A DNA stretch of 64,000 nt from Candidatus Gastranaerophilales bacterium (GCA_944325605.1 CALVAX010000010.1:5933-69932), one strand, 5' to 3'. Positions 4,925 through 51,917 are shown, counted from the first letter of the stretch. A program made the numbers and translations. Notes: a model not told the origin generated them from the letters alone.

Positions 4925-4930
4925 AAAACA

Positions 4931-4958
4931 ATTATAAATATTTAAAATATTTATGCAA
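4931..4958 (-). promoter_or_regulatory. sigma70-type promoter of purD with leaderless geometry
   Basis: The minus strand reads TTGCAT, 16 nt, TATAAT, TGTTTT, ATG. No Shine-Dalgarno sequence is present. Confidence 0.5.
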
Positions 4959-5092
4959 GGTGTAATTTTCTACAACAAAATAATGATTTTATTAAGATTT
5001 ATAAAAAAAAATAAAAATTTATGTTATAATAATGACGAAAAGAAAATTATAATTAATAATAATTTGTAGCAAGTGTAACAGGTAGAAATTAT

Positions 5093-5341
5093 ATGGCAGA
5101 TTTAGTAAGTTTATTATCGAATGTATTTACGGCTCAGCAGGCTCCTGCAGCGGTTTCGACGCCTGCAATAAGCCCGAGAACGAACAATCCGTTCAGCAAT
5201 AATCCTTTTGTCAACTATAACGGAAACAGGTATAACAGCGCAACTTACGGCAAAAACACACCGGTAAGAGGCGGATATTTTGCCGGCTACTATAACGGCA
5301 AACAGAATATTGTCGGACAAAGGTTGTTTATTGAAGTGTAG
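5093..5341 (+). CDS. small hypothetical protein (N/P/Y-rich, 82 aa)
   Basis: The ORF is followed directly by a strong hairpin terminator. No recognisable domain. Confidence 0.45.
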   Translation: MADLVSLLSNVFTAQQAPAAVSTPAISPRTNNPFSNNPFVNYNGNRYNSATYGKNTPVRGGYFAGYYNGKQNIVGQRLFIEV

Positions 5342-5367
5342 CAATATTTGATATTTTTATTAAGTTT

Positions 5368-5402
5368 ACCGCTTAAATTATGGAATTTAAGCGGTATTTT
5401 TT
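5368..5402. terminator. bidirectional rho-independent terminator
   Basis: ACCGCTTAAATT, loop ATGG, AATTTAAGCGGT (12-bp perfect stem), then ATTTTTT. It lies between convergent genes. Confidence 0.8.
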
Positions 5403-6240
5403 AGTTTTCAGTTTTTATTTTATACACATCCTGCTTGAATGCATATCTGTATAGAGCATAAAACACAGCCAGATTAATTAAGAATTCGCACACAACTCCG
5501 GAATAGCTGTTAATAAGAATGTGCTGCCCTGTTAAACTCAAAAATGTTTCACTGCAGATAAAAGGCACTGCCAATGCAGAAGCAAGCATTGGTAAAGCTA
5601 AAATTTTCCACACTATCTGAGTGCCGATTTTAAGATTGTAAGCGTAACCTATAGCAAACAATACCTTTGCAGCCATAAACACCCAGCAAACAATATCACC
5701 CCACACCAGCACCCCGTAATCCATCATCACAAGACAACTGCTCAGATAAATTAAACCCTGAACAGCAATGTAAGTTAAAAACACTTTCCAATAGGGTTTA
5801 TTTACACCAGAAAAGGTTTCACAATTTTTTTTATAAATAATACACGCACTTAAAACAGGTGAATAAATTAACAAATATATCAAAAGAGATAAAACAAGCA
5901 GCCTTGAAATTGCCGACATGTAAAAGGCTTGATCCAGTGTACCAAACTCTGATTTCACCTGTACTGCCATAATATTAAGCCCTGTAATCACTGACATTAC
6001 AACACTAAAGACAAAAAATAAAATACAGAAAATAATCAGTAAATTAATAAATTTATTGCTGAAAAGCTTCTTTTTCCAGCCAAGAGCATAAAATAACCCG
6101 AGTACAGCAATAACAAAAATACTGAAAATATAGCTTAATGAAATTGAAAACTCGCTTAAGACAAATCCGTTTGAAATGCCTCCTATATTTAAAAAACAGA
6201 AAATTAACGATATAATTACAAACAGTATTTTCCAAATCAT
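5401..6240 (-). CDS. polytopic membrane protein, unknown function
   Basis: 279 aa with about 8 hydrophobic segments. A GAGGAG RBS lies upstream. Confidence 0.65.
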   Translation of the reverse strand: MIWKILFVIISLIFCFLNIGGISNGFVLSEFSISLSYIFSIFVIAVLGLFYALGWKKKLFSNKFINLLIIFCILFFVFSVVMSVITGLNIMAVQVKSEFGTLDQAFYMSAISRLLVLSLLIYLLIYSPVLSACIIYKKNCETFSGVNKPYWKVFLTYIAVQGLIYLSSCLVMMDYGVLVWGDIVCWVFMAAKVLFAIGYAYNLKIGTQIVWKILALPMLASALAVPFICSETFLSLTGQHILINSYSGVVCEFLINLAVFYALYRYAFKQDVYKIKTEN

Positions 6241-6371
6241 TGTTTTACTCCTCTTTTTGAACTTAACATATATATCACATTTTGTAAATTATCGTTTATT
6301 AAACAGTTAAGTAATATAAAAAAACACATATTTTAAGTATAATTATAATGGACATGTGAGGAAAACATTAA

Positions 6372-8174
6372 ATGAATACTAATCAAATATTTGAAAAAAT
6401 AAAAACGACTCAGGCATATATGAATTACTCAAGGATGTGGCCTTTCGTAAAACCTTACTGGTTCAGAGCACTTCTGGCCGTATTAATATGCATTCCCATA
6501 GGCTCGCTTGACGCTGTAATTGCATTGTCTTTAAAACCTTACATGGATCTTGTAATGGTTGAAAAAACAGTTGAATCCCCATGGTATATACCGTTCGGGA
6601 TAGTTGCTTTTACGACTATTCAAGGAATGCTTAATTATCTTGCGACTTACCTAAACACATGGGTTGGCGGAAAAATTACAAACGATTTGAAATTTGAACT
6701 TTATAAAAAACTTTTGACTTTCGAAACTGCATATTTTGACAGGAAAAAATCAGGAGATATTGTATTTAGATTTAACAACGACGCAGACACAGCATGCGCA
6801 GGACTTCTGGATAACCTCAAGACTTTTGTATCAAGATTGTTCTCATCAATTTCGCTTGTAGGTGTCCTTATTTATAACTCATGGCAGCTTGCACTGATTG
6901 CCATTTTTATACTTGGATGCGCATTTCTGCCGCTTGCTAAAATCAGACAGAGAATTAAAAGCGTTATGGATAAATCAGTTGTTGCAGGCTCGACAATAAT
7001 TACAGCCTACAACGAAAGCTTTGCGGGAAACAAAACTATTACTTCCTATAACCTCGCGGATTATCAGGAAAACAAATTCAAAAATATTCTTCACGAAATT
7101 TTCAAGTTTAAAATCAAAATGATACAAAGAACCTCCTGGCTTTCTCCGATGATGCACGTTATTGTATCTGTCGGTATCGGTATTGCAATCGGCTACGGCA
7201 GCCATCTTATCTTAACTAAACAAATTACAAGCGGTAACTTTGTATCATTCATTACTGCATTAATTATGCTCTATACCCCGATTAAAAACCTCGGAAACAA
7301 CTTCAATTCTGTTCAATTCTCGTTTATGGCTATTGAACGTGTGTTCGGAGTTCTTGAAAGCAGCCCGAGAATTAAAGATAAACCGAATGCAGTTGATTTA
7401 AAAGAAATTAAAAACGATATAACCTTTAATGACGTTTGCTTTGAATACCTGAAAGACAAACCCGTCTTAAAACACATAAACCTTGAAGTTAAAAAAGGCG
7501 AAACCATTGCACTGGTAGGCAATTCAGGCGGCGGAAAATCTACAATCGTGAGCCTTATCCCGAGATTTTACGACGTAAAATCCGGCTCAATTATGATTGA
7601 CGGTATTGATATCAGAAATTATACACTCAAAAGCCTGAGAGAAAATATTTCAGTAGTGTTTCAGGACAACTTTCTGTTTTCAGGCACAATAAAAGAAAAT
7701 ATTCTTCTAGGTAAAGAAAACGCAACGGACGAAGAAATTCAAAAAGCTGTTAAAATGGCATATTTAGATGAATTTGTGGCTACGCTTAAAGAAGGCCTTA
7801 ATACCCAGATCGGAGAAAGGGGGATGCTTCTTTCCGGCGGACAAAAACAGCGTGTTGCAATTGCAAGAGCTTTTCTGAAAAATGCGCCGGTTGTTATTCT
7901 TGATGAAGCAACGTCAGCGCTTGACAACAAATCAGAAGCAATTGTGCAAAAAGCAATAGACAACCTTATGATAGATAAAACGGTTTTTGTAATTGCACAC
8001 AGGCTTTCCACAATACAGAATGCAGACAGAATTGCAGTTATAAATGAAGGAGTTCTGGCTGAACTCGGAACCCACGACGAACTTATGCAAATTGAAAACG
8101 GTAAATACAAAAATCTTTATAATATGCAATTCAGGGGGCAAAAAGAGTCCCAAAAAACACCGGTTGCCGTTTAA
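6372..8174 (+). CDS. ABC exporter, fused permease/ATPase (MsbA-like type I exporter)
   Basis: N-terminal 6-TM domain. Walker A GNSGGGKST, signature LSGGQKQRVAIARA, Walker B VVILDEATSALD. Confidence 0.9.
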   Translation: MNTNQIFEKIKTTQAYMNYSRMWPFVKPYWFRALLAVLICIPIGSLDAVIALSLKPYMDLVMVEKTVESPWYIPFGIVAFTTIQGMLNYLATYLNTWVGGKITNDLKFELYKKLLTFETAYFDRKKSGDIVFRFNNDADTACAGLLDNLKTFVSRLFSSISLVGVLIYNSWQLALIAIFILGCAFLPLAKIRQRIKSVMDKSVVAGSTIITAYNESFAGNKTITSYNLADYQENKFKNILHEIFKFKIKMIQRTSWLSPMMHVIVSVGIGIAIGYGSHLILTKQITSGNFVSFITALIMLYTPIKNLGNNFNSVQFSFMAIERVFGVLESSPRIKDKPNAVDLKEIKNDITFNDVCFEYLKDKPVLKHINLEVKKGETIALVGNSGGGKSTIVSLIPRFYDVKSGSIMIDGIDIRNYTLKSLRENISVVFQDNFLFSGTIKENILLGKENATDEEIQKAVKMAYLDEFVATLKEGLNTQIGERGMLLSGGQKQRVAIARAFLKNAPVVILDEATSALDNKSEAIVQKAIDNLMIDKTVFVIAHRLSTIQNADRIAVINEGVLAELGTHDELMQIENGKYKNLYNMQFRGQKESQKTPVAV

Positions 8175-9798: not shown

Positions 9799-11115
9799 TT
9801 AAAAAGCACCTCTTGTTTTTGTAATTTCTATGACATTCTTTTTTTCAAGTATATCAGTAATTATATCTTTCTCATTTTTAAAAGTATTAAAAACTCGATT
9901 TAAAATTTCCTGTTCATATGTTTGATAAATAACAATCAACCCACACTTATCAATAAATATTAAATCCCCTGGAGTTATAGTACAACCATCAATTTTAATC
10001 GGCTTATTAATATAATCCAAAACTGCTCTACGACGAACATCAGCAGCATTATATCCTCTTGTAAATACAGGATAATTCAAGGCCGCAGTTTCCTCCAGAT
10101 CTCTAGTCACACCATCAATTACTGTAGCTGCTGCTCCGGCACGTATTGCCAACTGCGCATTTAAATTACCAAAATAAGCAAATTCTTTGGCTTCATTTTC
10201 TACACAGATAACATCATTCTCTGATATTCCATCATAAGATGCCAATGCATCATAAATTTTTCTAAAATCCTCACCTACTTTTAATTTTCTTAAACGCAGG
10301 GTATTAGCCCGACCTAAAATTTTTACATTTTTCAAATTTGATTTCCAATTTGGGATAACAGCACCACATTTCACCCCCTTCTCAATTTCCATATCATCTA
10401 ATAGGTCAGACAGTGCAGGTGAAGTCATAAAATGTTTTACAAGATTTAAACGTTTGTTTTCGACTGCTCTTTTCCCCTTTGCGAAAGCTTCTGCAAATAC
10501 TAAATCCTCAGGTGTATTAACATCAATTAATTCTTCTAATTCTCCAAATATAAGCAACGGTTTTTCCCCATAACGGCGATTTGTTTTTAAAGCACTTGCT
10601 TTCTTGTGGATATACAATCCCATTGACTCATTTATCGTTTCAGGTAAATCCTTGCTGTTTGGAATATGGTTAATATCATATACAGGCTTATTATCCTTCC
10701 AAAAATAATATTTATCTTTTTTCATTAGAATAGCAGAATCATATTCTGTACTATTTTTAAGAGTTCTTATAGCTTTATCTATCGTTTCTGGATGTATAAA
10801 AGGTGATGTACACAACAATTGTACATATATGTCCGCATCGGAATATGAGTGAACTTCATTCATAAACATTTGATGTCCATCTGTTTTATTATTGGCAAGA
10901 CTTTCATCACGTTTCATAAAAGTAATTGGCAAATAGTCCGCCATCAAATACATCTCATCGGATTCAGTATCTAAAAACACTCGGTCTATTTCATTACATT
11001 TTAACAAAGTCTTAAGTGCTCTTATATAAAGGCGCTCCCCATCAAGGAAACGCATATTTTTACTTTCTACTCGTTCACTAGTTCCCTTTGCCGGAACAAA
11101 TGCATAAACTTTCAT
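9799..11115 (-). CDS. fusion: CMP-sugar (acylneuraminate-type) cytidylyltransferase + RraA/HMG-aldolase-like domain
   Basis: The N-terminal half has VPAKGTSERVESKN...LLCTSPF (CTP_transf_3 pattern). The C-terminal half has FGNLNAQLAIRAGAAATVIDGVTRD...PVFTRG...ITPGDLIFIDKCGLIVI (RraA-family pattern). Confidence 0.75.
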   Translation of the reverse strand: MKVYAFVPAKGTSERVESKNMRFLDGERLYIRALKTLLKCNEIDRVFLDTESDEMYLMADYLPITFMKRDESLANNKTDGHQMFMNEVHSYSDADIYVQLLCTSPFIHPETIDKAIRTLKNSTEYDSAILMKKDKYYFWKDNKPVYDINHIPNSKDLPETINESMGLYIHKKASALKTNRRYGEKPLLIFGELEELIDVNTPEDLVFAEAFAKGKRAVENKRLNLVKHFMTSPALSDLLDDMEIEKGVKCGAVIPNWKSNLKNVKILGRANTLRLRKLKVGEDFRKIYDALASYDGISENDVICVENEAKEFAYFGNLNAQLAIRAGAAATVIDGVTRDLEETAALNYPVFTRGYNAADVRRRAVLDYINKPIKIDGCTITPGDLIFIDKCGLIVIYQTYEQEILNRVFNTFKNEKDIITDILEKKNVIEITKTRGAF

Positions 11116-13579
11116 TTTTATCTCCTTTATTATTAATTTTTACATGCTCAAAATGATAACCTCTGTGTTCTGCAAAAGTTCTAAATTCGAGATTTTCCGA
11201 TAACATAGGCTTTGAATTTATATAGTTTGCACATTTCTTATACAAAACTGCTTTTAATTCTTGTTTTGAATAAGAGTTAGGATTAACGCTTAATAATTCT
11301 TCTATGGGTGTTGTATATTCCATAACCATTTTTCTTATTAAAAGACTTTGCCATTTAGTCTCAATAGGAACATCCCAATTTACGGGTAAATTTATTGTAA
11401 ATCCTGCAATTTGTGCAAATTCAATGGCTTGTAATGATGTCGAAGATCCCAACGAAACTACAGCCACAAACTCGTCTAAACTATAACAATCTAGCGGAAG
11501 ACTCGAATTTAAGATAGATATACTTGGATTATTTATATAATTTCTTGGATCTCTAGGATGTGGTTTAAAATAAATTTTATATCCTAGTTCTGTTAATTTA
11601 GCAATCATATCGTCTTGCAATTGCATATATTGCGTTTTTGAAAGACGAGTAATCTCCCACCAAGAACCACAAAAAATTATTGCTTTTTCTTCTTTATCTA
11701 AAGTAACATTTAATGGAAACATCGTTTCACACTCTTTAGTTACTTCTTTAAATAACTTGCGATCTAATGGGATCATTTTCCTGACAACATCCGGAGTGAA
11801 ACCATAATAATCTAATTTACCTATATAAGTATGGGTTATAAAATTTTTGAGCTTCCCGTAATCAAAATAACCGGAACGCGCTATTTTACAGCCGCAGCCT
11901 TCATCTGTCATTATCCAGGCAGCATTAGGGTATAACTCCTTTGGTATTCTAAAATCGCGATAAATATTAGGAAAATATACTTCATCAAAATTATACAATT
12001 TATTTTTCAAAAAATACTCTCTAATATCAGGAGTATTTGCATAATAAGAATGCACATTCTCAAAATTATGCAAACCCGCAATTTTTCTTGCGCATTCATC
12101 AAATTTATCATTTTTAAAATTTGAATATATAAAAAGCTCATCCTGACAATTAGGTTCATTCAATTGTTTTATAATTGTTAAAGTGTTCACAAGAGAAAGA
12201 TTTCCCGTTGTCATAAACAGGCGGCGTTTAATCTTTTTATTTTTTCTTTTCAGAAATTTATCATTTGCTTGTATAAAATGCTTAATTCTGTCTTCTAAAT
12301 TGATTTTATGCTTGAATGTAATACCAAAAATTCTCACTATTTTAACTTTATAATCATTTTTATAAGAATTACCTATAAAGAAAATTCTGTTTACTACTTT
12401 CTTAAAGTAATAGTTAAAGTCCTTATTTTTTGAGAACTTCAGTTTCACTCCTAAAATGTTGAATACCTTATGATTTTTAATTTTATCATTTGTAACTGAA
12501 AATATTTTTTGATAATGAGTTGAAATTTTTATTCCAAGCAGATTTAAAACAAAATATGGATTTTTATTTCTGAAAACTTTTAGACCGAAAAATCTATTGC
12601 CAAAATCAATATATGGAAGATTAAGCTGCTTAATTTTCCAAAATTGTCTTTTCCTAATATATTCAACTTCTGCTCCCCAATTATAATTAATATTCAACGA
12701 GTTTGCCAATTCTACTAATTTTTCTATTATAAAATTGCTATTTGAAGGAGTTGCAAATGTACAAGCCCACAAAATCACATTCAAAAAACGCCTAAAAATT
12801 AAATTACAACAAATATCTACTTTTTTATTTCTATTATAGAATTTGACAATTTCTTCCGCTGACTGAATATAATGCGAAAAAGCAAAAACAAAATTATAAT
12901 GAGGAGAATACTTTGTTGTTGCTGAATTTAATACTAATAAATAATGATATAATTCTTTATTTATAAAATAAATATAATTTACATCACACAAATACGAATA
13001 CACAAAAAGCGTATCTTCGGTATAATTATAATTTAAAAAACGAAGATTAAAATTTTGTATTATTTTCTTTTTAAATAATAAACGCCAAACACCACCGGAC
13101 ATTCTTAAACTTATCTGTAAGCTTAACTTCTTCTTTCCTGCAAAAGGATATTTGTGCCAACCTTTTATGTTTTTATATTCGTCCTTTCGATCATCCCTTA
13201 ATTGAACTACATTAACACCCCAGCTGACAAGGTCAATTTCAGAGTCTTTGAGAAACTCGGCTACTGCAAGTTCGTAACACTCTGGTTCCAGCCAGTCGTC
13301 TGAATCTACAAAGGCTATATACTCGCCTGTCGCAATATCAAGACCTTGGTTTCGAGCTGCTGAAACGCCTGCATTTTCCTGATGGATTACTATTATACGT
13401 GAATCCTTTTTAGCATATTCGTCTAGAATAGCACCACTATTATCTGGAGAGCCGTCCTCAACACATATTATCTCTAAATTCGTATATGTTTGATTTATTA
13501 CGCTATCCAAACATTTTTGTAAATATTTTTCTACGTTATATACTGGTATTATAACACTTATTAATGGTGTATTTTCCAT
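11078..13579 (-). CDS. bifunctional glycosyltransferase: N-terminal GT2 + C-terminal (poly)sialyltransferase-like domain
   Basis: GT2 signature: ISVIIPVYNVEKYL...VEDGSPD...FVDSDDW. The C-terminal half starts RLFMTTGNLSLVNTLTIIKQ. It carries a D/E-D/E-G motif (MTDEG, nt 11897-11905) and an HP motif (KPHPRD, nt 11555-11560). Confidence 0.7.
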   Translation of the reverse strand: MENTPLISVIIPVYNVEKYLQKCLDSVINQTYTNLEIICVEDGSPDNSGAILDEYAKKDSRIIVIHQENAGVSAARNQGLDIATGEYIAFVDSDDWLEPECYELAVAEFLKDSEIDLVSWGVNVVQLRDDRKDEYKNIKGWHKYPFAGKKKLSLQISLRMSGGVWRLLFKKKIIQNFNLRFLNYNYTEDTLFVYSYLCDVNYIYFINKELYHYLLVLNSATTKYSPHYNFVFAFSHYIQSAEEIVKFYNRNKKVDICCNLIFRRFLNVILWACTFATPSNSNFIIEKLVELANSLNINYNWGAEVEYIRKRQFWKIKQLNLPYIDFGNRFFGLKVFRNKNPYFVLNLLGIKISTHYQKIFSVTNDKIKNHKVFNILGVKLKFSKNKDFNYYFKKVVNRIFFIGNSYKNDYKVKIVRIFGITFKHKINLEDRIKHFIQANDKFLKRKNKKIKRRLFMTTGNLSLVNTLTIIKQLNEPNCQDELFIYSNFKNDKFDECARKIAGLHNFENVHSYYANTPDIREYFLKNKLYNFDEVYFPNIYRDFRIPKELYPNAAWIMTDEGCGCKIARSGYFDYGKLKNFITHTYIGKLDYYGFTPDVVRKMIPLDRKLFKEVTKECETMFPLNVTLDKEEKAIIFCGSWWEITRLSKTQYMQLQDDMIAKLTELGYKIYFKPHPRDPRNYINNPSISILNSSLPLDCYSLDEFVAVVSLGSSTSLQAIEFAQIAGFTINLPVNWDVPIETKWQSLLIRKMVMEYTTPIEELLSVNPNSYSKQELKAVLYKKCANYINSKPMLSENLEFRTFAEHRGYHFEHVKINNKGDKNESLCICSGKGN

Positions 13580-13583
13580 AAAC

Positions 13584-14627
13584 TTATACTCCTCTTCGTA
13601 ACTTTTTAGCGTTTTTTATTTTTTGTTTCCACTTTAATCTTTTGTCTTTATAATGTTTTTTAGCATTGCCAAAAGTAATATTTGAAAGAATTTTATATCG
13701 CCAATACTTCAGAATATTTTTTCTGTAGTTTAAAGCATCGCTTAACTGCGTTTTATCAATATTGTTGCGGACTTCTATAGTTTTGCTTTGTAATAAATTC
13801 ATAAGCATTGCTTCATAATAAGGTGATTTCCGTGCATAATACCAAAAATATTCAGCATAAGGAGTATTAATTTTTAACCAGGGTTTTTGACGTGCTGCAT
13901 AGTGTATAATACCATTATTTCTTAGCAATAGTTGGTTAATATGATATTCATTGTAATTGGGTTGATTATAATTAACATATATGTTCCAACGTGCATCAAG
14001 ATAATATATATTCTTTGCAAATGTAATATTAAAAATATCTTGATCTGGATATTCAAGTTTTTGCTTATACGTTATAGCTGTATCTTCAAATTTTTGTTCA
14101 ACATCTAATTCCCGCCACAAATCTAAATTTGCAACAAAAACTCCGGTATTACAGTAATGTACTATACTTTTTACATTTAATGCTTGTTTAACTCTCTCTG
14201 AAAGTGGATCAATTACCGCAGCAAATGGTTTTGATACAACGTCTGTATTGTAGAGCTCACTCAATGAACTTTGAACAATCATATCCGTTTCTAATACAAT
14301 TGCTTTCGATATATTTGGAAATAAAGAAGCAAGCTTCAATTTGTAATTACACAAATTTGTTTGAATATGCAACTTTGCAAATGGAATATTTTTTATTATA
14401 TTTGCATCTGGATATATATATTCAATATTGTAATTTTTATGCTTTCCGCAACCTAAAGATATTTTTATTTTATCAACTTTAGATATATCTTCTGTAATGA
14501 TATGGAATGATAAATAGTCATCTTCATTCGCATTTTCTAATATTGATATTAATAAAACTATTAAATATTGCGAATATAAAGATGATGAAGGTATAATTAT
14601 ATCAATAGGCTTTTTGTCTTTAATCAT
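13584..14627 (-). CDS. glycosyltransferase family 8
   Basis: NTGVFVANLDLW, DQDIFN and IIHYAARQKPW motifs. ATG 14627 overlaps the upstream stop (ATGA). Confidence 0.85.
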   Translation of the reverse strand: MIKDKKPIDIIIPSSSLYSQYLIVLLISILENANEDDYLSFHIITEDISKVDKIKISLGCGKHKNYNIEYIYPDANIIKNIPFAKLHIQTNLCNYKLKLASLFPNISKAIVLETDMIVQSSLSELYNTDVVSKPFAAVIDPLSERVKQALNVKSIVHYCNTGVFVANLDLWRELDVEQKFEDTAITYKQKLEYPDQDIFNITFAKNIYYLDARWNIYVNYNQPNYNEYHINQLLLRNNGIIHYAARQKPWLKINTPYAEYFWYYARKSPYYEAMLMNLLQSKTIEVRNNIDKTQLSDALNYRKNILKYWRYKILSNITFGNAKKHYKDKRLKWKQKIKNAKKLRRGV

Positions 14628-15973
14628 TTTAAAATCTCCATTTTTAAAACCTTTCTCCCATCGTCGAATGCCTGATGGGTCCAGAAGTATTCCCATTTGC
14701 CGAAGCGTCCGATACTTTCTATTCCAACTTTGTACAGATAGTCAAGAACTATCTTTTTGTTTTTGTAAATATCTTTGTCAAAGATTACGTTTGCATACTT
14801 TTCAAATCGAATATCTTTTACAGCAATTTCTTCTTCTTTGAACAGACCCATCGAAATTAAACTTTCTATTGTTTTTTCAAGGATTACCTCAGGCGGTGTC
14901 TGAGGATTAAAGAAACCCCTCCTCGAAATCACAGATTTCGGTCCTCCCGCAAGGGGAGGACAATTCTCTTGCGCTCCGGAATTTGCAAAGAATATTTCCG
15001 CCTGCAGTGAACTGCAGCCTTCCGGTACATTATCCGCAGACTTCAAGTTTGGCGAATAAACCCTTGCCGGCAAAATATCTTCATCATAAATATAAAACCA
15101 CAGATGCTTTGCCACATCCGGACGATTAAATCCTAATGACACCATATAACCTGATGTATGCATAAGATTTAAACCGGCTTCTTTTACTTCCTCCGGTATT
15201 CCGTCTATCATTTTTACTATTTCTGGCAGCGGAAGCGATGAAATCAATCTTGTGTATTTTGTGCTTGTTCCGTCTTTAAATATGACTATCTTTTCCTGAG
15301 GATTGATTTTGATGACTTTTTTGTTAAAACGTATATCCAAACCTTCGCGGCATTTGTTTAAGATTGAGCGGAACCCGCCTTTTTTAGGGTATTTCATCAC
15401 TTTTGAATAGTAAAAACATTCATCTTGAGTTTCAAATGAACCTTTTAAAACCTGTTTTAAATCAGGAGTATACATCCTTTGCCCCACCCATTTTGTTTCA
15501 AGCTCTTTTGGTTCTACTCCCCAGTATTTGCGGGTGTATTTGAACGGAAAGTTTTCGGCAAAATAATTTCCGTATTGAACCCTTAGCCATTCACCATAAT
15601 CTTGTATTTCATCAACTGGTTTTTCAATTCTGTTTACAAAATCATAGATAATGTCCGTTTTTTCTTCAGATGATAGGGGGGCAAGATTATTTTGAGCAGG
15701 GTGTCTAATCCAAATTCCTTTGTAATAATTCGACGGAAAAGGGACATGTTCAATCAGTTCAACAGATTCTTTAAATATATTTTTTATGTACTCATCCGGC
15801 GCAAAAGTAAAATGCACAAACCGGTCAAAACGGAAGCCGTCTATCGTGAAATTTCCGCATAAACCGCCCCAGTCGCTGTCTTTTTCATAAATAACGACAT
15901 TTTCACCGGATTTTTCAAGATGATAACCTGCAGAAATTCCGGCGATTCCGCTTCCTAAGATTACAGTTCCCAT
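14624..15973 (-). CDS. FAD-dependent nucleotide-sugar pyranose/furanose mutase-like oxidoreductase (long, eukaryote-type UGM-like)
   Basis: GSGIAGISAGYHL dinucleotide fold. GGLCGNFTIDGFRFD and RHPAQNNLAPLSSEEK resemble the PFQNN segment of long UDP-galactopyranose mutases. Confidence 0.6.
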   Translation of the reverse strand: MGTVILGSGIAGISAGYHLEKSGENVVIYEKDSDWGGLCGNFTIDGFRFDRFVHFTFAPDEYIKNIFKESVELIEHVPFPSNYYKGIWIRHPAQNNLAPLSSEEKTDIIYDFVNRIEKPVDEIQDYGEWLRVQYGNYFAENFPFKYTRKYWGVEPKELETKWVGQRMYTPDLKQVLKGSFETQDECFYYSKVMKYPKKGGFRSILNKCREGLDIRFNKKVIKINPQEKIVIFKDGTSTKYTRLISSLPLPEIVKMIDGIPEEVKEAGLNLMHTSGYMVSLGFNRPDVAKHLWFYIYDEDILPARVYSPNLKSADNVPEGCSSLQAEIFFANSGAQENCPPLAGGPKSVISRRGFFNPQTPPEVILEKTIESLISMGLFKEEEIAVKDIRFEKYANVIFDKDIYKNKKIVLDYLYKVGIESIGRFGKWEYFWTHQAFDDGRKVLKMEILK

Positions 15974-17055
15974 AGATATCCTTTATCCGAGTGTGCTTGA
16001 ATTTGTTTCTTACAAAATTCGAACATATCGTCCGAGTGCAGAGCTTCCTTGTACCAGTCAACCGTAAATTCTATAGCCTCTTTTAAATTAAGCATTGCTT
16101 TCCACTGAAGCATTCTGTATGCTTTTGTGACATCAAGACTCAACAGTGTATTTTCATGCACCATTTCTTTTCCTGATACATCTACTACTTTGCCTTTGCC
16201 GTAGTATTTAACCAGGTATTCCACAACTTCCCAAACTGTTTTGTTGCATTCTATCGGAGGCCCGAAGTTGAAACCTTCCGAATACTTAACAGGATCTTCC
16301 ATTAACTTCTGGCCGACTCTAAGGTATCCGCTTAAAGGCTCCATTACATGCTCCCACGGGCGTGTTGCCTTTGGTGATCGTATTTCGATATCTTTCCCTT
16401 CTTCAATAAATCTTATGCAGTCAGGGATTAAACGATTATCTGACCAGTCGCCTCCGCCGATTACATTTCCGGCGCGGACTGACGCTATTGCCTTTCCGTG
16501 TTTTGCATAATCTTTCGGGTTGAAGTAAGAGTTTCTGTAAGATGAAATCATTAGTTCTGCACACCCTTTTGAAGATGAATACGGGTCGTAACCGCCCATT
16601 CTGTCTGTTTCTTTGTAACCCCAGATTTGCTCTACATTTTCGTAGCACTTGTCAGAGGTAATCATAACAACCGTCTTAATACAATCAAATTTTCTGACAG
16701 CCTCCAGTATGTTCAAAGACCCCATAACGTTGGTTTCGTATGTGTATTTCGGATTTGCATAAGCTGTTCTGACTAACGCCTGTGCTGCAAGGTGGAAAAC
16801 AATTTCAGGTTTATACTTTGCGATTGTTTCTTCCAGCTTTTCACTGTCACGGACGTCACCCTTCACATCTGCAAATAAATGTTTTTCCAGATGTGAAGCC
16901 TTGTAGTTTCCTCTCTCGCTGTACGGTTCAAGCGCATAGCCGACAACTTTTGCCCCGAGCATTGTAAGCCAGATTGAAAGCCAGCTTCCTTTAAAGCCGG
17001 TATGACCTGTTACAAGTACTGTTTTACCTGAATAAACATTATTAAAATTTGACAT
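15961..17055 (-). CDS. rfbG: CDP-glucose 4,6-dehydratase
   Basis: GKTVLVTGHTGFKGSWLSIWL N-terminus and YSSSK catalytic motif. 364 aa. Confidence 0.9.
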   Translation of the reverse strand: MSNFNNVYSGKTVLVTGHTGFKGSWLSIWLTMLGAKVVGYALEPYSERGNYKASHLEKHLFADVKGDVRDSEKLEETIAKYKPEIVFHLAAQALVRTAYANPKYTYETNVMGSLNILEAVRKFDCIKTVVMITSDKCYENVEQIWGYKETDRMGGYDPYSSSKGCAELMISSYRNSYFNPKDYAKHGKAIASVRAGNVIGGGDWSDNRLIPDCIRFIEEGKDIEIRSPKATRPWEHVMEPLSGYLRVGQKLMEDPVKYSEGFNFGPPIECNKTVWEVVEYLVKYYGKGKVVDVSGKEMVHENTLLSLDVTKAYRMLQWKAMLNLKEAIEFTVDWYKEALHSDDMFEFCKKQIQAHSDKGYLWEL

Positions 17056-17947
17056 TATATTTTTCCTTTCCGAGCATTATAATCTCCTTAAGTGCTGTTT
17101 CAATCGTATATTCAGGTTCCCATCCAAGGTCATTACGTAGTCTTGAGTTGTTTCCGACAACAAATTTATACTGGTTACTTGCATGTTCATTAAATACCAC
17201 AAGATTTTCTTTTTTCATCAATTTTGCGATTGTTAAAACATAGTCTTTTATGCTGGTTGCAATTCCTGTTGAAATGTTAAATATGCCCTGCTTATCAGAA
17301 TCCAGAATCTCAACAAAGGCACTTGCAACATCTTTTGAATAAATATAATCTCTTATTAAACTTCCGCTTTTGATTTCAACTGTTTTATCGTTAAAAAGCG
17401 AGTTCATAACATCACCTGTCAATCTTCGTAAATCGCTTTCCAGACCGAAGGCGGAAAAAATTCTTCCCCACGCTAAGCTTATTCCGTTAGATTTACAGTA
17501 CAGTTCGGCTATCTCCCGTAAATAGTTTTTGCATTTTCCATAAATATGCTGTGGATTAAGCGGGCTTTTATATTCATCTAAAAGTTCTGCGCTTTCGGCA
17601 TATTCAATGTAAGTTCCTGCGATAACAACTTTTTCACCGCCATTTTCCTTAAAAGTTTTCAGCAGATTTAATGACGCTAATAAAAAATCAAAATTTATAT
17701 TGTCATTAAATTTGCCTGTTGTCTGCCAGGCAAGATGCAGTAAATGAGTCGGTTTTATTTCTTCAAATATCTTTTTCACTGTTTCAAAATCAAACAAATT
17801 TCCCTGAAGCCATATAACTTCACTATGGTGAGAAGGGATTTCACCCGTTGTGAGTGCAAAAACCTCATACCCTTTATCCAGTAAAGGTTTTAAGGTTTCT
17901 TTGCCGATAAGTCCTTTTGCTCCTGTAACAAATACTTTTTTAGGCAT
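17042..17947 (-). CDS. NAD-dependent sugar epimerase/reductase (extended SDR)
   Basis: VFVTGAKGLIGKE Rossmann motif and a YGKCK catalytic motif. It is a paralog of the next gene. Confidence 0.8.
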   Translation of the reverse strand: MPKKVFVTGAKGLIGKETLKPLLDKGYEVFALTTGEIPSHHSEVIWLQGNLFDFETVKKIFEEIKPTHLLHLAWQTTGKFNDNINFDFLLASLNLLKTFKENGGEKVVIAGTYIEYAESAELLDEYKSPLNPQHIYGKCKNYLREIAELYCKSNGISLAWGRIFSAFGLESDLRRLTGDVMNSLFNDKTVEIKSGSLIRDYIYSKDVASAFVEILDSDKQGIFNISTGIATSIKDYVLTIAKLMKKENLVVFNEHASNQYKFVVGNNSRLRNDLGWEPEYTIETALKEIIMLGKEKYNVKF

Positions 17948-18848
17948 TAATCTGTCCCCTCCACCATTCAACACATTCTGTCAAACCGTCATCAAGGGAA
18001 TATTCGGGAGTCCATTTGACTTCATTTTTCAGTTTTAAACAGTCGCCCACGACAACAGGATCTTCAAAACCCGCCGGAATTACACCGTATAAAATTTTGC
18101 CTGAAAAATTCGTTAACTCCTTAATTTTTTCAACAATTGTTTTCAGTTGAACAGGTTCGCCGGAACAAATGTTAACAGCTCCTTGTACATCGCTTTCAAA
18201 AAACTTGACTATTGCTTTTGAAACATCATTCAAATACAAATAATCCTGATATTTTGTGCAAGGCGAAACTTTAACATCTTCCCCTTTCAGCATGGATGTA
18301 ATTACATAAGGCATCAATCTTTCAGGACGTTCAAACCGGCCGTATAAATTAAATATTCTTGCCCATTTAAAATCAATTTCGTTTTGCCCGCAATAAGTTC
18401 TGGCAACATTAAACAAAGCAGCTTTTGACTGCCCGTAAAGAGATTTGTTATCAAGCGGAGTTAAATCTTCTTTAAAATATCCGTACCCAAAGTCGTATTC
18501 TGAAATACTTCCGGCAAAAAGAATTTTTTTTCCGCCGTTTTCTTTAAAATACTTTAAAAGATTAAGAGAAGCCCCTACCCATTCAATGTTTATATTGTGA
18601 GAATGGCATTTTTTATCGCCGTACCATGCCAGATGGATTAAATTTTCAAACCTGTTTGATTGAATAAAATCTTTGACCGCAGCAAAGTCCAACAAATTAA
18701 GTGTCACAATTTTCAAATTGTTGTGCCAGAAATCGACGTGATTTTGAAAATTAATACCGACGACATCGTATCCGTTTAAAACTAAATCTTTTACAAGTTG
18801 TTTTCCGATAAATCCTGAAGCTCCGGTAACTAAAACTCTCTCTTTCAT
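17940..18848 (-). CDS. NAD-dependent sugar epimerase/reductase (extended SDR)
   Basis: VLVTGASGFIGKQL Rossmann motif and a YGQSK catalytic motif. Confidence 0.8.
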   Translation of the reverse strand: MKERVLVTGASGFIGKQLVKDLVLNGYDVVGINFQNHVDFWHNNLKIVTLNLLDFAAVKDFIQSNRFENLIHLAWYGDKKCHSHNINIEWVGASLNLLKYFKENGGKKILFAGSISEYDFGYGYFKEDLTPLDNKSLYGQSKAALFNVARTYCGQNEIDFKWARIFNLYGRFERPERLMPYVITSMLKGEDVKVSPCTKYQDYLYLNDVSKAIVKFFESDVQGAVNICSGEPVQLKTIVEKIKELTNFSGKILYGVIPAGFEDPVVVGDCLKLKNEVKWTPEYSLDDGLTECVEWWRGQINA

Positions 18849-18850
18849 TT

Positions 18851-19666
18851 TTATATTACTCCGGCTAAGGTTTCATACGCGTTAGTTTTCTCCCAGACTT
18901 TCCAGGGAGCTGTACCGGATTCCCACATTTCATCCAGTTCAATTTTGTCTCTCAGAGTGTCCATGGGCCGCCAGAAGCCGTGGTGTTTGTATGCAGCAAG
19001 CCCGCCGTGTTCGGCTATTGTTTCAAGAGGTCTGCGCTCAAAGATTTCGTTTTCATTTCCTGCTTCTATAAAGTTAAACACTTCAGGTTCGCAGACAAAG
19101 AATCCGCCGTTTATCCAGCCGCCGTCGCCTTTTGGTTTTTCTCTGAATGAAGATATTGTTCCATCCTCTTCTATATTCAGCGCGCCAAATCTGCCGGAAG
19201 GCTGAACTGAAGTCATTGTCATTATTTTTTTATGCGAGTTGTGGAAGTCTACAAGTTCTTTAATATTCACATCCGCAACACCGTCGCCGTAGGTGAGTAA
19301 GAAGGGTTTGTTTCCGACATACTCCTGTGCTTTTTTAATTCTGGCACCTGTCATTGCATTCTGGCCTGTGTAGAGCATAGTGACTTTCCAGGGCTCCGTG
19401 CGCATTTTGTGAAGTTCAATAGTATTGTCGCGCATATCTATTGTTAGGTCTGAATATCTCTGGTAATAGTGCACAAAGTAATCTTTTATTACATGCGACT
19501 TATATCCTGTCAGAATTACAAAGTCATTAAACCCGTAGTGGGAATAAATCTTCATTATGTGCCACAGAATAGGATACCCGCCGATTTCTACCATGGGCTT
19601 TGGTTTGCTTACTGTTTCTTCTCCTATGCGCGTCCCTAAACCGCCTGCTAATATTAGTACTTTCAT
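18851..19666 (-). CDS. rfbF: glucose-1-phosphate cytidylyltransferase
   Basis: MKVLILAGGLGTRIGEET...KPKPMVEIGGYPILWHIMKIY, the typical RfbF N-terminus. Confidence 0.9.
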   Translation of the reverse strand: MKVLILAGGLGTRIGEETVSKPKPMVEIGGYPILWHIMKIYSHYGFNDFVILTGYKSHVIKDYFVHYYQRYSDLTIDMRDNTIELHKMRTEPWKVTMLYTGQNAMTGARIKKAQEYVGNKPFLLTYGDGVADVNIKELVDFHNSHKKIMTMTSVQPSGRFGALNIEEDGTISSFREKPKGDGGWINGGFFVCEPEVFNFIEAGNENEIFERRPLETIAEHGGLAAYKHHGFWRPMDTLRDKIELDEMWESGTAPWKVWEKTNAYETLAGVI

Positions 19667-19697
19667 TCTTATCTCGCACCTCTTAGACTTATAATTT

Positions 19698-20225
19698 TTA
19701 CAAATTTATCCCTGACTTAAATCTTGCACTTATTGATTCCTGAACATCAATATAACTCATTGTCTGGGCTGCTGACTGATGCCCGAAATACCACTGAAGA
19801 AAAGTTAAATCTTTATATTTTTCATAATAGTGGTACCCGAAAGTTTTTCTCCAGGATTCCGCTGAAATGTCTGCAAAACCAAGTTCTTCACACACTGCTT
19901 TAAAATTCTGGTATGCGGAATGTCTGCCCAGACGCTTGCCGAATACTGATGTAAACAAAGGTTCAGAAGCTTTTTTATTTTCTGTTATTTTATCTACAAG
20001 TTTTTGAATTTTCTCCGGCAAAATATACTCTGCACCGGTTTTTAATTTCAAAGATTTTTTGTTCTTTACATCTTTCACATCCAGATTTAAAAGGTTCACA
20101 ACCTTCATGCCGGTATTTATTGCAAGCTCAAAAAGGAGCAGATCCCTGTCATTACCGGTTCTGCGATAGTAATTTTTTATCTGGGCTATTAAATTTTTAT
20201 CTTTTAACGGTACAGTTTTTGTCAT
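19698..20225 (-). CDS. small tyrosine-recombinase-like protein (catalytic domain only, 175 aa)
   Basis: NTGMKVVNLLNLDVKDV (Arg-I position is Lys), SWRKTFG and FGHQSAAQTMSYI (H...Y) segments. It is the first gene of the glycan operon. Confidence 0.65.
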   Translation of the reverse strand: MTKTVPLKDKNLIAQIKNYYRRTGNDRDLLLFELAINTGMKVVNLLNLDVKDVKNKKSLKLKTGAEYILPEKIQKLVDKITENKKASEPLFTSVFGKRLGRHSAYQNFKAVCEELGFADISAESWRKTFGYHYYEKYKDLTFLQWYFGHQSAAQTMSYIDVQESISARFKSGINL

Positions 20226-20271
20226 GGCCTACATATTCTTAAAAGCTGAAATTCAAACCCCTGCCACATAA

Positions 20272-20294
20272 TATTCATTATGTTGTGTTTAATT
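20272..20294. repeat. left 23-bp inverted repeat (IRL)
   Basis: TATTCATTATGTTGTGTTTAATT, the exact reverse complement of 20400-20422. Confidence 0.95.
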
Positions 20295-20399
20295 AATTAG
20301 CTTTATATCCGCATATTAGCATAAACAAAAAATAAATAATACCACTATGTTAAAAATTGTAATATTCAAAAACCGTATTGTATGTATATTTTGCCAAAC

Positions 20400-20422
20400 A
20401 ATTAAACACAACATAATGAATA
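20400..20422. repeat. right 23-bp inverted repeat (IRR)
   Basis: AATTAAACACAACATAATGAATA, the exact reverse complement of 20272-20294. Confidence 0.95.
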
Positions 20423-20467
20423 ATTAGTAATGTTACAAATTAAACATTTTTAAACTTTTAGTGTTCA

Positions 20468-20476
20468 TGATACAAT
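20468..20476 (+). promoter_or_regulatory. extended -10 (TGATACAAT) of the MFS gene, leaderless geometry
   Basis: The -10 ends 6 nt before ATG 20483. No SD is present. Confidence 0.4.
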
Positions 20477-20482
20477 TGTTGT

Positions 20483-21904
20483 ATGACTAACAAATCTTTA
20501 AAATGGACAATATTTGTAATTACTGCAATTGGCAATTTTATAGCAATGCTTGATTCAACAACGGTTAATCTTGCACTGTACCCGATGTCCGTAGATTTGC
20601 AGGTTTCAATGAGCCAGATACAGTGGGTTATGATTGCATATATGCTTGTGCTGACTGTTTTTCTTCCGTTTTTTGGAAAACTGGGTGATATTTTTCCGAA
20701 AAACAAGCTCTATTCTATCGGATTTACACTTTTTGCAATCGGAGCGTTCTTGAACACTACTGCACAAAACTTCTGGCTGTTAATTGCATACAGATGCCTT
20801 GAGGCTCTTGGGGCGTCTATAATGCTATCTAACGCTCAAGCTATCATTGCTTCGATATTTAAAAATGAACGCAGGGGAAAAGCTCTGGGATTAAACGGAT
20901 GCATAGTTGCTATAGGCGGAATGAGCGGCCCTGCAATTGGAGGTATTCTTATCAATTCTTTCGGATGGCATTCGGTATTTTTTCCATGCATTCCGGTTGC
21001 GCTTGCCGGCGCTTACTATTCATACAGAATGCTCCCGCACACAGTCAAAACTGACAGGAAAAATTTCAAATTTGATTACAAAGGGTTTATATATTTTACA
21101 ATAAGCTTATTTGCACTTCTTCTTGCTATTGCGGAAGGTCATACCTGGGGATGGCATTCTTTAAAAATTATAGCCCTTGGACTTATAACACTTGTGTTCG
21201 GAGTGTTATTCTATATCAGAGACCACCATATAAATTATCCTTTGATCGATTTTTCACTGTTCAAAATAAAAACATTTACCTACGGAAACTTAGGTGTAAT
21301 GACGTCTTATATGGCAATGTACACAAACAGTATACTTCTTCCGTTCTTTTTGCAGGAGATATTAAAGTACAACGCGCTTGTGACAGGGCTTTTAATCCTT
21401 CCGTATTCAGTTACTTTATCAGTGGTTGCTCCGTTTGCAGGAAGATTATCGGGCAAATACGGAAGCAGATACCTGACACTTGCAGGCCCTGTCGTTTATT
21501 GCATAGCACTTTTAATGTTCACTTTGTATGACAAAAACTGTACTATGTGGCAGATTGTACTTGCCTCGGGAATTATGGGAATAGGAAACGGGCTTTTCCA
21601 ATCACCTTCAAACAATGCGATTATGACAAGTGTTACCCCTCCGGCTCTCGGGCTTGCGTCAGGAATTCTTGCGCTTTCAAGAAATATGGGCAACATCCTA
21701 GGTGTTGCGGTAACAATCACTTTGTTTGAAACGTTCAGAAATCTTCTTCTTGAAAACGGGAAAGCATATGACACAGCATTTTTATTTTCATACAGAACAA
21801 CGATGTGCTTCGGAATTTTGTTTGGTTTAATTTGCCTTCTGTTTGCCTATATCGCACACAAACCGGCAAAAACAGCTAAAAACAACCTGGAAATTACATC
21901 TTGA
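20483..21904 (+). CDS. MFS transporter, 14-TMS DHA2 (EmrB/QacA-like) type
   Basis: 473 aa and about 14 hydrophobic segments. LDSTTVNLAL and GKLGD MFS motifs are present. Confidence 0.85.
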   Translation: MTNKSLKWTIFVITAIGNFIAMLDSTTVNLALYPMSVDLQVSMSQIQWVMIAYMLVLTVFLPFFGKLGDIFPKNKLYSIGFTLFAIGAFLNTTAQNFWLLIAYRCLEALGASIMLSNAQAIIASIFKNERRGKALGLNGCIVAIGGMSGPAIGGILINSFGWHSVFFPCIPVALAGAYYSYRMLPHTVKTDRKNFKFDYKGFIYFTISLFALLLAIAEGHTWGWHSLKIIALGLITLVFGVLFYIRDHHINYPLIDFSLFKIKTFTYGNLGVMTSYMAMYTNSILLPFFLQEILKYNALVTGLLILPYSVTLSVVAPFAGRLSGKYGSRYLTLAGPVVYCIALLMFTLYDKNCTMWQIVLASGIMGIGNGLFQSPSNNAIMTSVTPPALGLASGILALSRNMGNILGVAVTITLFETFRNLLLENGKAYDTAFLFSYRTTMCFGILFGLICLLFAYIAHKPAKTAKNNLEITS

Positions 21905-34128: not shown

Positions 34129-34218
34129 CCGCCCCATTTTGTCATGCTGAGTTTATCTCAGTATCTCAACGGGATTCTGAAACAAGTTCAGAATGACAGT
34201 GTAAGACAAAATGGGGCG
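34129..34218. mobile_element. MITE-like element E1, short form (90 bp)
   Basis: 14-bp perfect terminal inverted repeats CGCCCCATTTTGTC / GACAAAATGGGGCG. Confidence 0.7.
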
Positions 34219-34468
34219 ATTTCTTATCGCCTTTATTCCGAAACTAACCTTTCAACCTTTCACCCATTCCACTATTCAACTCTCCTCACGCTTCACGCTT
34301 CACTCTTCACTTTCCCGTCCGCCCCCTCACCCTGACCCTCAGCCATTCGGCATACAGTCTCACTCGGCTCGTTCCTCGCCGGTTCGAACTAGCATCCCAC
34401 AAGGGGAGATGGAAAATATTTTACTTAACAAACCTTTCAACTTTTCAACTATCTTCACTCTTCACTTT

Positions 34469-34644
34469 CGCCCCATTTTGTCATCCTGAGTTTGCGGATT
34501 TTCGGTAGGGTGAAGCAAAGCGGAACCCGTAAGGTGCGGGTCGGACGTTACTCCGCCCGCACCCCGAATAATCCAAGATAGTCTCAGTATCTCAACGGGA
34601 TTCTGAAACAAGTTCAGAATGACAGTGGTAGACAAAATGGGGCG
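34469..34644. mobile_element. MITE-like element E1, long form (176 bp) with nested 86-bp GC-rich insert (34494-34579)
   Basis: Same 14-bp TIRs. It matches 50223-50398 over the insert and most of the body, with differences only just inside the right TIR. Confidence 0.7.
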
Positions 34645-34724
34645 ATTTCTTACCGCATTTTTCTGAAACTAACCACTCAACTTTTCAACCATTCACCATT
34701 TCAACCCTCTTCACACCTCACTTT

Positions 34725-34830
34725 GTTAGAACCTGACTTACAAATCACCCACACCCGAAATTGTAAGTTCGCTAATGCTCACTAACAATTTCTTCCCTCT
34801 CCCCTCAAGGGAGAGGGGATTTATTTTACG
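34725..34830 (+). repeat. 106-bp palindromic module E3, copy a
   Basis: Identical to 35006-35111 and 52004-52109. It ends in the hairpin CCTCTCCC/GGGAGAGG followed by ATTTATTTT. Confidence 0.9.
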
Positions 34831-35005
34831 TAAAGAACTTTTCGTCTTATCGTCCTTACGTCTTTATTTAAAGTGAATAAGTGAATAGGTGATGAAGTGA
34901 ATAAGTTCTTTGCGGCGCTTCGCGCAAATTTTAATTAAACATTACGCACTTATTCACCTATTAATTTTCAACTCTCCTCACGCTTCACACCTCACCCCTC
35001 ACTCT

Positions 35006-35111
35006 GTTAGAACCTGACTTACAAATCACCCACACCCGAAATTGTAAGTTCGCTAATGCTCACTAACAATTTCTTCCCTCTCCCCTCAAGGGAGAGGGGA
35101 TTTATTTTACG
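35006..35111 (+). repeat. 106-bp palindromic module E3, copy b
   Basis: Identical to copy a. Confidence 0.9.
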
Positions 35112-35335
35112 AAACAAACCTTTCAACCATTCAACTTTTCAACTTTTCAACCTTTCAACTCTTCTCACGCTTCACACCTCACTCTGATAAAAACTTAACG
35201 CCATATCGCCTTGCAGTCTTATCGCCTTTTTTCGAAACAAACCACTCAACTTTTCAACCATTCACCCTTTCAACCCTCCTCTCTCTTCACTGAAAATGTT
35301 TTCATGGTAAAATTGCTGTCAAAAGGGGATTCGTG

Positions 35336-50222: not shown

Positions 50223-50398
50223 CGCCCCATTTTGTCATCCTGAGTTTGCGGATTTTCGGTAGGGTGAAGCAAAGCGGAACCCGTAAGGTGCGGGTCGGAC
50301 GTTACTCCGCCCGCACCCCGAATAATCCAAGATAGTCTCAGTATCTCAACGGGATTCTGAAACAAGTTCAGAATGACAGTGTAAGACAAAATGGGGCG
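50223..50398. mobile_element. MITE-like element E1, long form, second copy (nested insert 50248-50333)
   Basis: Same 14-bp TIRs. It matches 34469-34644 apart from differences just inside the right TIR. Confidence 0.7.
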
Positions 50399-51828: not shown

Positions 51829-51917
51829 CGCCCCATTTTGTCTTTCTCTGTCATCCTGAATTTATTTCAGGATCTCATCGGGATACTGAAACAAGTTCAG
51901 CATGACAAAATGGGGCG
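51829..51917. mobile_element. MITE-like element E1, short variant (89 bp)
   Basis: Same 14-bp TIRs with a divergent interior. Confidence 0.65.

Follow-up and report, generated by a model that had tools for sequence, protein, structure and literature searches.

A naturally inverting DNA segment and a catalytically degenerate recombinase paralog at the head of a glycan operon in Gastranaerophilales gut bacteria

A short, repeat-bounded segment of DNA ahead of a glycan operon occurs in both orientations in natural populations of the Gastranaerophilales (Melainabacteria), common, uncultured gut bacteria whose surface variation is almost wholly unstudied. The segment was analyzed within a stretch of 64,000 nucleotides from Candidatus Gastranaerophilales bacterium (GCA_944325605.1 CALVAX010000010.1:5933-69932), hereafter called the window, which denotes the full 64 kb; L-numbers and P-numbers below are locus labels and protein labels, respectively. 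The segment lies between a divergent transporter gene of the major facilitator superfamily (MFS) and a gene for a recombinase-like protein of 175 amino acids (aa), the first gene of the operon. This protein belongs to a group of recombinase paralogs, termed clade B, that is catalytically degenerate relative to a canonical sister group, clade A. We favor, at a probability of about 0.65, a reading in which an unlinked (trans-acting) clade A-type invertase flips the switch and the clade B protein serves as a non-catalytic partner.

Inversion in natural populations

As is expected of an inverton, the segment is bounded by inverted repeats. The operon-proximal copy at 20272-20294 (TATTCATTATGTTGTGTTTAATT) is the exact reverse complement of the MFS-proximal copy at 20400-20422, forming a perfect 23-bp pair separated by an interior of 105 bp (20295-20399), just as the original prediction had described it. 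Among the perfect inverted repeats of the window this pair is the longest, and shuffled sequences average 0.6 repeats of at least 14 bp. With up to three mismatches allowed, the 23-mer is found only at these two sites in the window, against none expected by chance (100 shuffles). An 18-mer, ATTCATTATGTTGTGTTT, was also traced in a collection of metagenome contigs that excludes the window lineage. Its 99 single matches fell on unrelated environmental contigs, none with two copies, and were dismissed as chance.

Many metagenome contigs proved, by exact-protein look-up, to carry the identical 175-aa gene, and the orientation of the segment was read from alignment of the 257-bp interval that separates this gene from the MFS gene. 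The orientation seen in the window is common to L001 and L106. The segment is reversed, between near-identical flanks, in L002-L010, L098, L103 and L107, and also in L104 over the portion covered. Overall, among sequences with the identical clade B gene, three assemblies (window, L001 and L106) have one orientation versus 13 samples with the other. Contigs oriented like the window belong to two strain backgrounds, and in each of these, near-identical relatives are oppositely oriented. Over approximately 2.1 kb, the window differs from L098 and L010 at 12 positions and L106 differs from L005 at 7, as compared to 37 differences between the window and L106. Therefore, at least two independent and recent inversions are needed to account for the data. 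The segment is a real invertible element. The original prediction had called the switch invertible and had named other metagenomes of the lineage as the place where an inverted 20295-20399 should be visible; public metagenome assemblies of the same lineage indeed contain both orientations, the inverted one in 13 samples.

Polymorphisms in and near the repeats provide additional information on the exchange. A single-nucleotide polymorphism (SNP) at the fourth base of the repeat, counted from its inner end, is carried by the MFS-proximal copy in L001 and by the operon-proximal copy in L005 and L006. The SNP moves along with the segment and, therefore, strand exchange occurs farther out within the repeat. 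Inside the segment, L001 has the same SNP allele as the inverted contigs, yet the opposite orientation. Moreover, contigs of four independent assemblies (L105, L097, L241 and L242) begin or stop exactly at the inner repeat boundary. Such ends suggest that both orientations were present in one sample, as only then does a de Bruijn graph branch at this point.

These results bear on whether the two orientations might simply be an old fixed polymorphism, or an artefact of assembly, with no active switching. Each assembly does report a single consensus orientation, as that explanation would have it. However, it does not fit with opposite orientations between nearly identical flanks in each of two distinct strain backgrounds, with the allele shared between L001 and oppositely oriented contigs, with co-inversion of the repeat SNP, or with four contigs that end precisely at repeat boundaries. 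Mis-joining is unlikely because the 23-bp repeat is shorter than the k-mers commonly used by assemblers. Finally, the same pattern of both orientations is seen at two further loci of the family (P0215 and L016-type, described below). We consider a fixed polymorphism or artefact extremely improbable.

Recombination sites

The outer part of the operon-proximal repeat, together with its flank, forms a dyad with 7-bp arms and a 4-nt center (ACATAAT-attc-ATTATGT; 20266-20283). The mirror site at the MFS-proximal end (20411-20428) keeps the center and inner arm and has a degenerate outer arm (TAAT only). The same arrangement of arm, center and arm, in which the arms reach 12 bp and the center is 4 nt long, is also found at switches adjacent to clade A genes (L037, L041, L042, L059 and L091), exemplified by TCTATACACAAT-taac-ATTGTGTATAGA in L037 and TTTCAACAAAAT-agat-ATTTTGTTGAAA in L059. 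As judged from sequence, this is the anatomy of tyrosine-recombinase core sites, and the dyad at 20266-20283 is the probable recombinase binding and crossover site. Core-site anatomy would place the crossover at repeat positions 2-5, in agreement with the SNP result. Because most of both repeats would then be included, the exchanged DNA is predicted to measure approximately 145 bp rather than 105.

A GGGGTAAAT motif was observed beside one repeat copy in several otherwise dissimilar switches (L012, L014, L016, L024, L030 and L236). It lies within the invertible segments, at the end opposite the promoter.

Two clades of recombinase-like proteins

The 175-aa gene (19698-20225, minus strand) encodes a protein that matches the catalytic domain of the Phage_integrase family only (Pfam PF00589, E = 3e-19). 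The catalytic fold is predicted with high confidence (AlphaFold predicted local distance difference test score of 91), with template-modeling (TM) scores of 0.70-0.75 to XerA, Cre and Tn1549 Int. Its best matches are Xer-type catalytic domains, both by sequence (PDB 4a8e, E = 5e-15, and 5hxy) and by Foldseek comparison (TM 0.70-0.75). The full catalytic set of a tyrosine recombinase (Arg-I, hairpin Lys, His-II, Arg-II and His/Trp-III) is incomplete: K41 occupies Arg-I, E123 occupies His-II, and Ala stands at the hairpin-Lys column. R126 and H149 are retained, as is the nucleophilic tyrosine, Y158. The Lys at the first catalytic Arg was noticed in the original prediction and does mark an undescribed subfamily. 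The gene shows a dN/dS of 0.036 relative to a 92%-identical ortholog in a sister lineage, and its polymorphisms within the lineage are all synonymous. Thus, it is under strong purifying selection and is not decaying. No second family member besides the known gene was detected in the 64-kb window by tblastn with 34 proteins, and a scan of genome contigs for the family yielded a best match 48% identical to the window protein. The nearest family members all reside in metagenome-assembled genomes (MAGs) of Gastranaerophilales that come from the same cohorts, in keeping with a probable origin in the human gut.

Catalytic residues of the two clades were counted in cluster representatives, 131 of clade A and 129 of clade B. 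Clade A proteins are approximately 180 aa in length and comprise more than 5,700 proteins at E <= 1e-30, with many members 68-75% identical to the query among the matches listed. All but one representative (130/131) display the canonical R-H-R-H-Y. Clade B, which contains the window protein, is strikingly different. Arg-I is retained in 4/129 representatives, with N, D, Y, G and K among the replacements, and His-II in none (0/129). His-III is retained in 3/129 and is Gln in 126/129, while the tyrosine is retained in 24/129 and is Phe in 105/129 (81%). Arg-II is kept in all. Clade B proteins have also lost 5 residues from the beta2-beta3 hairpin, the location of the catalytic Lys. The clade B profile has at least 120 matches at E <= 6e-72; the 1,230 matches obtained at E <= 1e-20 may include clade A proteins. 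By residue content, clade B is a catalytically degenerate paralog group of clade A.

Throughout Gastranaerophilales genomes, repeat-flanked segments of 110-400 bp are situated directly downstream of clade A genes and directly upstream of clade B genes. The full layout of clade A gene, switch, clade B gene and operon is found in L013, L017-L020, L022, L023, L025, L026 and L034, and also around the closest relative of the window protein (L091 and L239), where the clade A gene is canonical. Clade B genes lead tightly packed glycan operons. Switches with a clade A gene only front glycosyltransferases, a radical SAM enzyme, a DNA methylase and an SNF2/PLD protein.

Several observations on individual loci accompany this survey. 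The clade A-linked switches before the DNA methylase (L035, 6537-7993) and the SNF2-helicase/PLD-nuclease protein (L068, 669-3936) suggest phase-variable restriction or defense genes in these bacteria. At the P0015 locus (L223-L232, approximately 2100-3055), a clade B gene with residues N-A-R-Q-F leads a GT2/LicD glycosyltransferase operon; no inverted repeat was found upstream of this clade B gene, where a divergent 70-aa Xre-type helix-turn-helix gene is present instead. Retention of clade B at a locus with no recognizable switch implies that its role may extend beyond its own switch. Lastly, the predicted product of one and the same clade B gene is 263 aa (P0164) or 183 aa (P0161) long depending on the orientation of the upstream segment, as seen in L016, L237 and L238 versus L233-L236. 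The split calls arise because the open reading frame extends into the switch in one orientation, and protein clusters may therefore divide according to switch state.

The enzyme that inverts the switch

Two further loci of the family are informative with respect to the enzyme. The P0215 locus encodes a clade B protein with residues D-A-R-Q-F next to a clade A gene, and both orientations occur. The L016-type locus has PriA upstream and a clade B protein with residues M-A-R-Q-F; here L016, L237 and L238 are oriented opposite to L233 and L234, and no clade A gene was found near the switch at this locus. Because a protein lacking the nucleophile cannot be an invertase, an unlinked enzyme must flip this orphan switch, the configuration of which matches that of the window. 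Orphan clade A genes coexist with orphan clade B switches in the same MAGs (L012 with L064; L030 with L082). Precedent for an unlinked tyrosine invertase is provided by RecV of Clostridioides difficile, for which this activity has been demonstrated experimentally (PMC2784873). Finally, the 92%-identical ortholog of the window protein, which has the same K-E-R-H-Y residues, adjoins a canonical clade A gene.

The original prediction regarded the 175-aa protein as a dedicated mini-recombinase, that is, an invertase with a divergent active site acting on the switch directly upstream of its own gene. Among clade B proteins, the window protein is of the least degenerate kind, with R126, H149 and the nucleophile Y158 kept, but three of six catalytic positions are altered, Arg-I and the hairpin Lys among them. 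Lys at Arg-I tends to accompany a retained Tyr in clade B (9/10 members having Lys) and occurs in otherwise canonical Clostridium members of the family (K-H-R-H-Y; L076 and L078), which makes residual activity of the window protein possible. However, an Arg-to-Lys change at Arg-I cripples Cre, XerD and topoisomerase IB. The same change was used to capture complexes of the Tn1549 integrase with DNA (PDB). Strong purifying selection on the gene would suit an active enzyme, as would the lack of a further family recombinase in the 64-kb window, but 81% of the subfamily have no nucleophile and yet their switches invert, including the orphan switch with a Tyr-less partner. The subfamily has also lost catalytic residues and shortened its hairpin by 5 residues. 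Gene position is a further difficulty: the window gene is downstream of the switch and inside the switched operon, whereas the canonical paralog is upstream, as it is beside the switch of the 92%-identical ortholog. An invertase so placed would go unmade in the OFF state and the switch would be trapped OFF, barring leaky expression. Collectively, these data indicate that the protein is probably not the invertase, and we judge a dedicated function of this kind unlikely.

A trans-acting clade A enzyme must also be set against several facts that weigh the other way, in addition to the residues retained by the window protein and the Clostridium sequences. The search of the 64-kb window turned up no clade A gene, nor could one be assigned to this genome. 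P0037, the closest of the unlinked candidates, comes from 7 samples, none of which is among the 16 that contain the window lineage. The signal for switching within a single sample comes from contig break points, and the promoter within the segment, which we infer drives the operon, is assigned by consensus and conservation only.

Candidates for the trans-acting enzyme of the window lineage were rejected as follows. P0037, which is 89% identical to the clade A protein of the sister lineage, is encoded at a CreD locus with no switch and comes from samples disjoint from those of the window lineage. P0047 and P0036 proved to belong to sister-type loci. In L207-L213, the P0037 gene occupies the syntenic CreD locus, and behind it come a convergent gene for a GT8 glycosyltransferase and a GerE-family regulator gene. 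There was no switch or clade B gene at the locus in L207-L213, and this clade A gene may be an orphan invertase left by rearrangement.

Promoter and switch state

The extended -10 that the original prediction had placed within the segment, TGCTAATAT, is present on the minus strand at 20313-20321 and faces the operon in the window orientation. TGnTAATAT is kept in the window and in the sister lineages L091 and L214, with n alone varying. A consensus scan identified a second promoter-like site in the same direction, ATTACA-N16-(TGg)TATTAT (20336-20363, minus strand), which was demoted as main promoter because the sister lineages do not preserve its -10. Related loci contain TTGCAT-N16-TGaTATTAT inside the segment, directed toward the operon in L012, L024 and L030 and away from it in L014. 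The gene upstream of the switch is divergent, leaving no other source of transcription for the operon. The orientation of the window is thus most likely ON, in agreement with the earlier proposal that the operon is ON as sequenced, and 13/16 of the sampled populations are most likely predominantly OFF.

Inversion could conceivably control the operon by other means, such as an orientation-dependent terminator or leader with a promoter elsewhere (compare C. difficile cwpV and flgB). The promoter call is consensus-based, and a sigma-70 scan returned 5 sites versus 5.0 in shuffled sequence, which leaves some room for such control. Nonetheless, the upstream MFS gene is on the plus strand, so no upstream transcript enters the operon, and the start codon lies just 46 bp from the repeat. 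A scan of 19500-20700 revealed no terminator-like site. These features, along with TGnTAATAT in three lineages and analogous promoters in other switches, make a terminator or leader mechanism improbable.

The divergent gene (20483-21904, plus strand) encodes a DHA2-family MFS transporter (TIGR00711, 243 bits). An inverted promoter would face this gene, an arrangement that does not imply an effect on its expression. The MFS gene has a promoter-like site of its own outside the switch, TTTAAA-N16-TGaTACAAT (20449-20476), with only 6 nt between its -10 and the ATG, and a Shine-Dalgarno sequence could not be recognized in 20423-20485. The MFS mRNA may be leaderless and, if so, read-through from the inverted promoter might be poorly translated.

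The glycan operon

The recombinase-like gene is followed by eight further minus-strand genes (9799-19666) that overlap or are separated by gaps of 31, 2 and 4 nt, a layout that agrees with the eight glycan genes and maximal 31-nt spacing reported at the outset. First is a glucose-1-phosphate cytidylyltransferase (RfbF; 18851-19666; TIGR02623, 394 bits versus a cutoff of 300). Two short-chain dehydrogenase/reductase (SDR) proteins follow, a nucleotide-sugar epimerase/dehydratase (17940-18848; PF01370, E = 2e-36) and a nucleotide-sugar epimerase/reductase (17042-17974; PF01370, E = 8e-32). Next are CDP-glucose 4,6-dehydratase (RfbG; 15961-17055; TIGR02622, 481 bits versus a cutoff of 278) and a flavin-dependent oxidoreductase resembling amine oxidase and UDP-galactopyranose mutase (14624-15973; PF13450 and PF01593). 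The distal genes encode a GT8 glycosyltransferase (13584-14696; PF01501, E = 2e-34), a GT2 glycosyltransferase fused to a polysialyltransferase-like C-terminal domain (11078-13579; PF00535, E = 1e-41; PF07388, E = 2e-6) and, as the last gene, a CMP-sugar-type cytidylyltransferase fused to an RraA-like aldolase domain (9799-11115; PF02348 and PF03737).

RfbF and RfbG, both of which exceed NCBIfam cutoffs, constitute the first two steps of the CDP-hexose pathway. Family profiles gave no match to a flippase, polymerase or initiating transferase among the eight operon genes; hence, the operon probably decorates an existing surface glycan. RfbF of the window is 68-71% identical to RfbF of related Gastranaerophilales MAGs.

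Gene content behind the switch varies among strains. In L001-L010, the identical clade B gene and rfbF are followed by strain-variable genes (locus coordinates approximately 4378-6528), with next genes of, for example, 302 and 301 aa, 307 and 360 aa, or 307 and 378 aa and then GT2. The switch therefore appears to front a hypervariable glycan cassette. Within the window, GC content is just 28% at 12001-14000, in the GT8 and GT2 genes, versus approximately 37% elsewhere, suggesting that these genes were acquired or are fast-evolving.

Other features of the window

Overall GC content of the window is approximately 37%, and scanning it for Rfam families and tRNA genes gave no hits. Unconnected with the switch, a family of short interspersed repeats occupies 34130-35300, 50223-50398 and 51829-51917. 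Its unit, CGCCCCATTTTGTC, occurs 8 times (0 expected) and forms inverted pairs 61-148 bp apart; possibly, the family is a miniature inverted-repeat transposable element or an element like repetitive extragenic palindromes. The region of 33.9-35.3 kb, which is poor in open reading frames, also contains direct repeats of 75-133 nt rich in TTCAAC/TTCAC.

Discussion

The switch resembles fimS of Escherichia coli in that a short promoter segment lies between inverted repeats, with half-sites flanking the repeats and outer arms that are unequal between the two ends. The associated enzymes, FimB and FimE, are likewise small tyrosine enzymes consisting of the catalytic domain only, at approximately 200 aa versus approximately 180 aa for clade A. 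FimB and FimE differ in that both keep the full catalytic set and both are encoded upstream of the switch, independent of its state, a property shared by clade A genes and not by the window gene. The neighboring gene in the window is instead a degenerate paralog located downstream, within the switched operon. Cargo also differs, being fimbriae in the case of fimS and a glycan operon here. In sequence, the window protein is only remotely related to the FimB/FimE family (PRK09870/PRK09871) and falls outside it, scoring 37.7 bits against PRK09871 versus a cutoff of 222; clade A proteins are also far under the cutoff.

A second likeness is to the capsule loci of Bacteroides fragilis, where invertible promoters also precede glycan operons. 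B. fragilis has several switchable loci per genome, its invertase can be unlinked, and the first gene of each operon encodes a locus-specific, non-enzymatic factor. Some related Gastranaerophilales MAGs similarly carry more than one such locus: L014 and L024 are in one MAG, one in each state (OFF-like or ON-like), and combinations that an unlinked invertase might serve are seen in related MAGs (L014 with L024, L012 with L064, and L030 with L082). Bacteroides Mpi is a serine recombinase, whereas the window sites and protein family are of the tyrosine type. Similarly, Bacteroides UpxY is NusG-like and UpxZ is its inhibitor, whereas the first gene of the window operon is recombinase-derived with no homology to either and matches PF00589 only.

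With C. difficile RecV, the window system shares inversion of short repeat-flanked segments (cwpV, flgB and others) by a tyrosine recombinase that is, or here would be, distantly encoded (PMC2784873). At cwpV, the promoter is not part of the switch and a terminator exerts control, and the C. difficile systems are not known to have a degenerate recombinase paralog in the switched operon. The closest relatives of the window protein in sequence and fold, the catalytic domains of Xer-type recombinases (XerA, XerH and XerD), differ in having an N-terminal core-binding domain, a full catalytic set and a role in chromosome-dimer resolution.

We propose the following model. Approximately 145 bp bounded by two core-type tyrosine-recombinase sites would invert by conservative site-specific recombination, carrying an outward-facing promoter with the extended -10 TGCTAATAT. 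In the orientation of the window, this promoter would transcribe nine genes, namely the 175-aa gene and the eight glycan genes, whose products are predicted to make and transfer building blocks derived from CDP-hexose and CMP-sugar. Inversion would leave the operon with no promoter. The reaction itself would be performed by a clade A-type invertase whose gene lies at a different place in the genome. The clade B protein would be made in the ON state only and bind DNA at the switch as a regulator, where it might lock or bias orientation or cross-talk with other switches. It is probably a DNA-binding regulator and not a catalyst. A DNA-binding role at recombination sites would fit with preservation of the fold and Arg-II, production restricted to the ON state, and sequence evolution that, like that of the repeats, is quick.

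A literature search in which subscription journals were largely uncovered produced no account of invertons in Gastranaerophilales or Melainabacteria, nor of recombinase paralogs lacking Tyr at invertible promoters. An invertible promoter is itself a known kind of element; what is most likely new is a degenerate recombinase paralog built into the switched operon. The locus also urges caution in automated annotation that pairs an inverted repeat with the neighboring recombinase.

The locus provides sequence-level evidence that DNA inversion toggles glycan-modification operons of Gastranaerophilales. Unexpectedly, the paralog at the head of the operon, although strongly conserved and folded like a recombinase, has probably abandoned catalysis and has moved into the operon that is switched. 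If clade B proteins read or control switch state, they would represent a new type of component in phase variation. As a tentative extension, clade B might constitute widespread pseudo-recombinases, non-cutting DNA binders that lock or bias their own switch or silence those of rival glycan loci. Such proteins, if this proves true, would give a gut lineage of uncultured, non-photosynthetic cyanobacteria a recombinase-derived counterpart of the logic of Bacteroides UpxZ.

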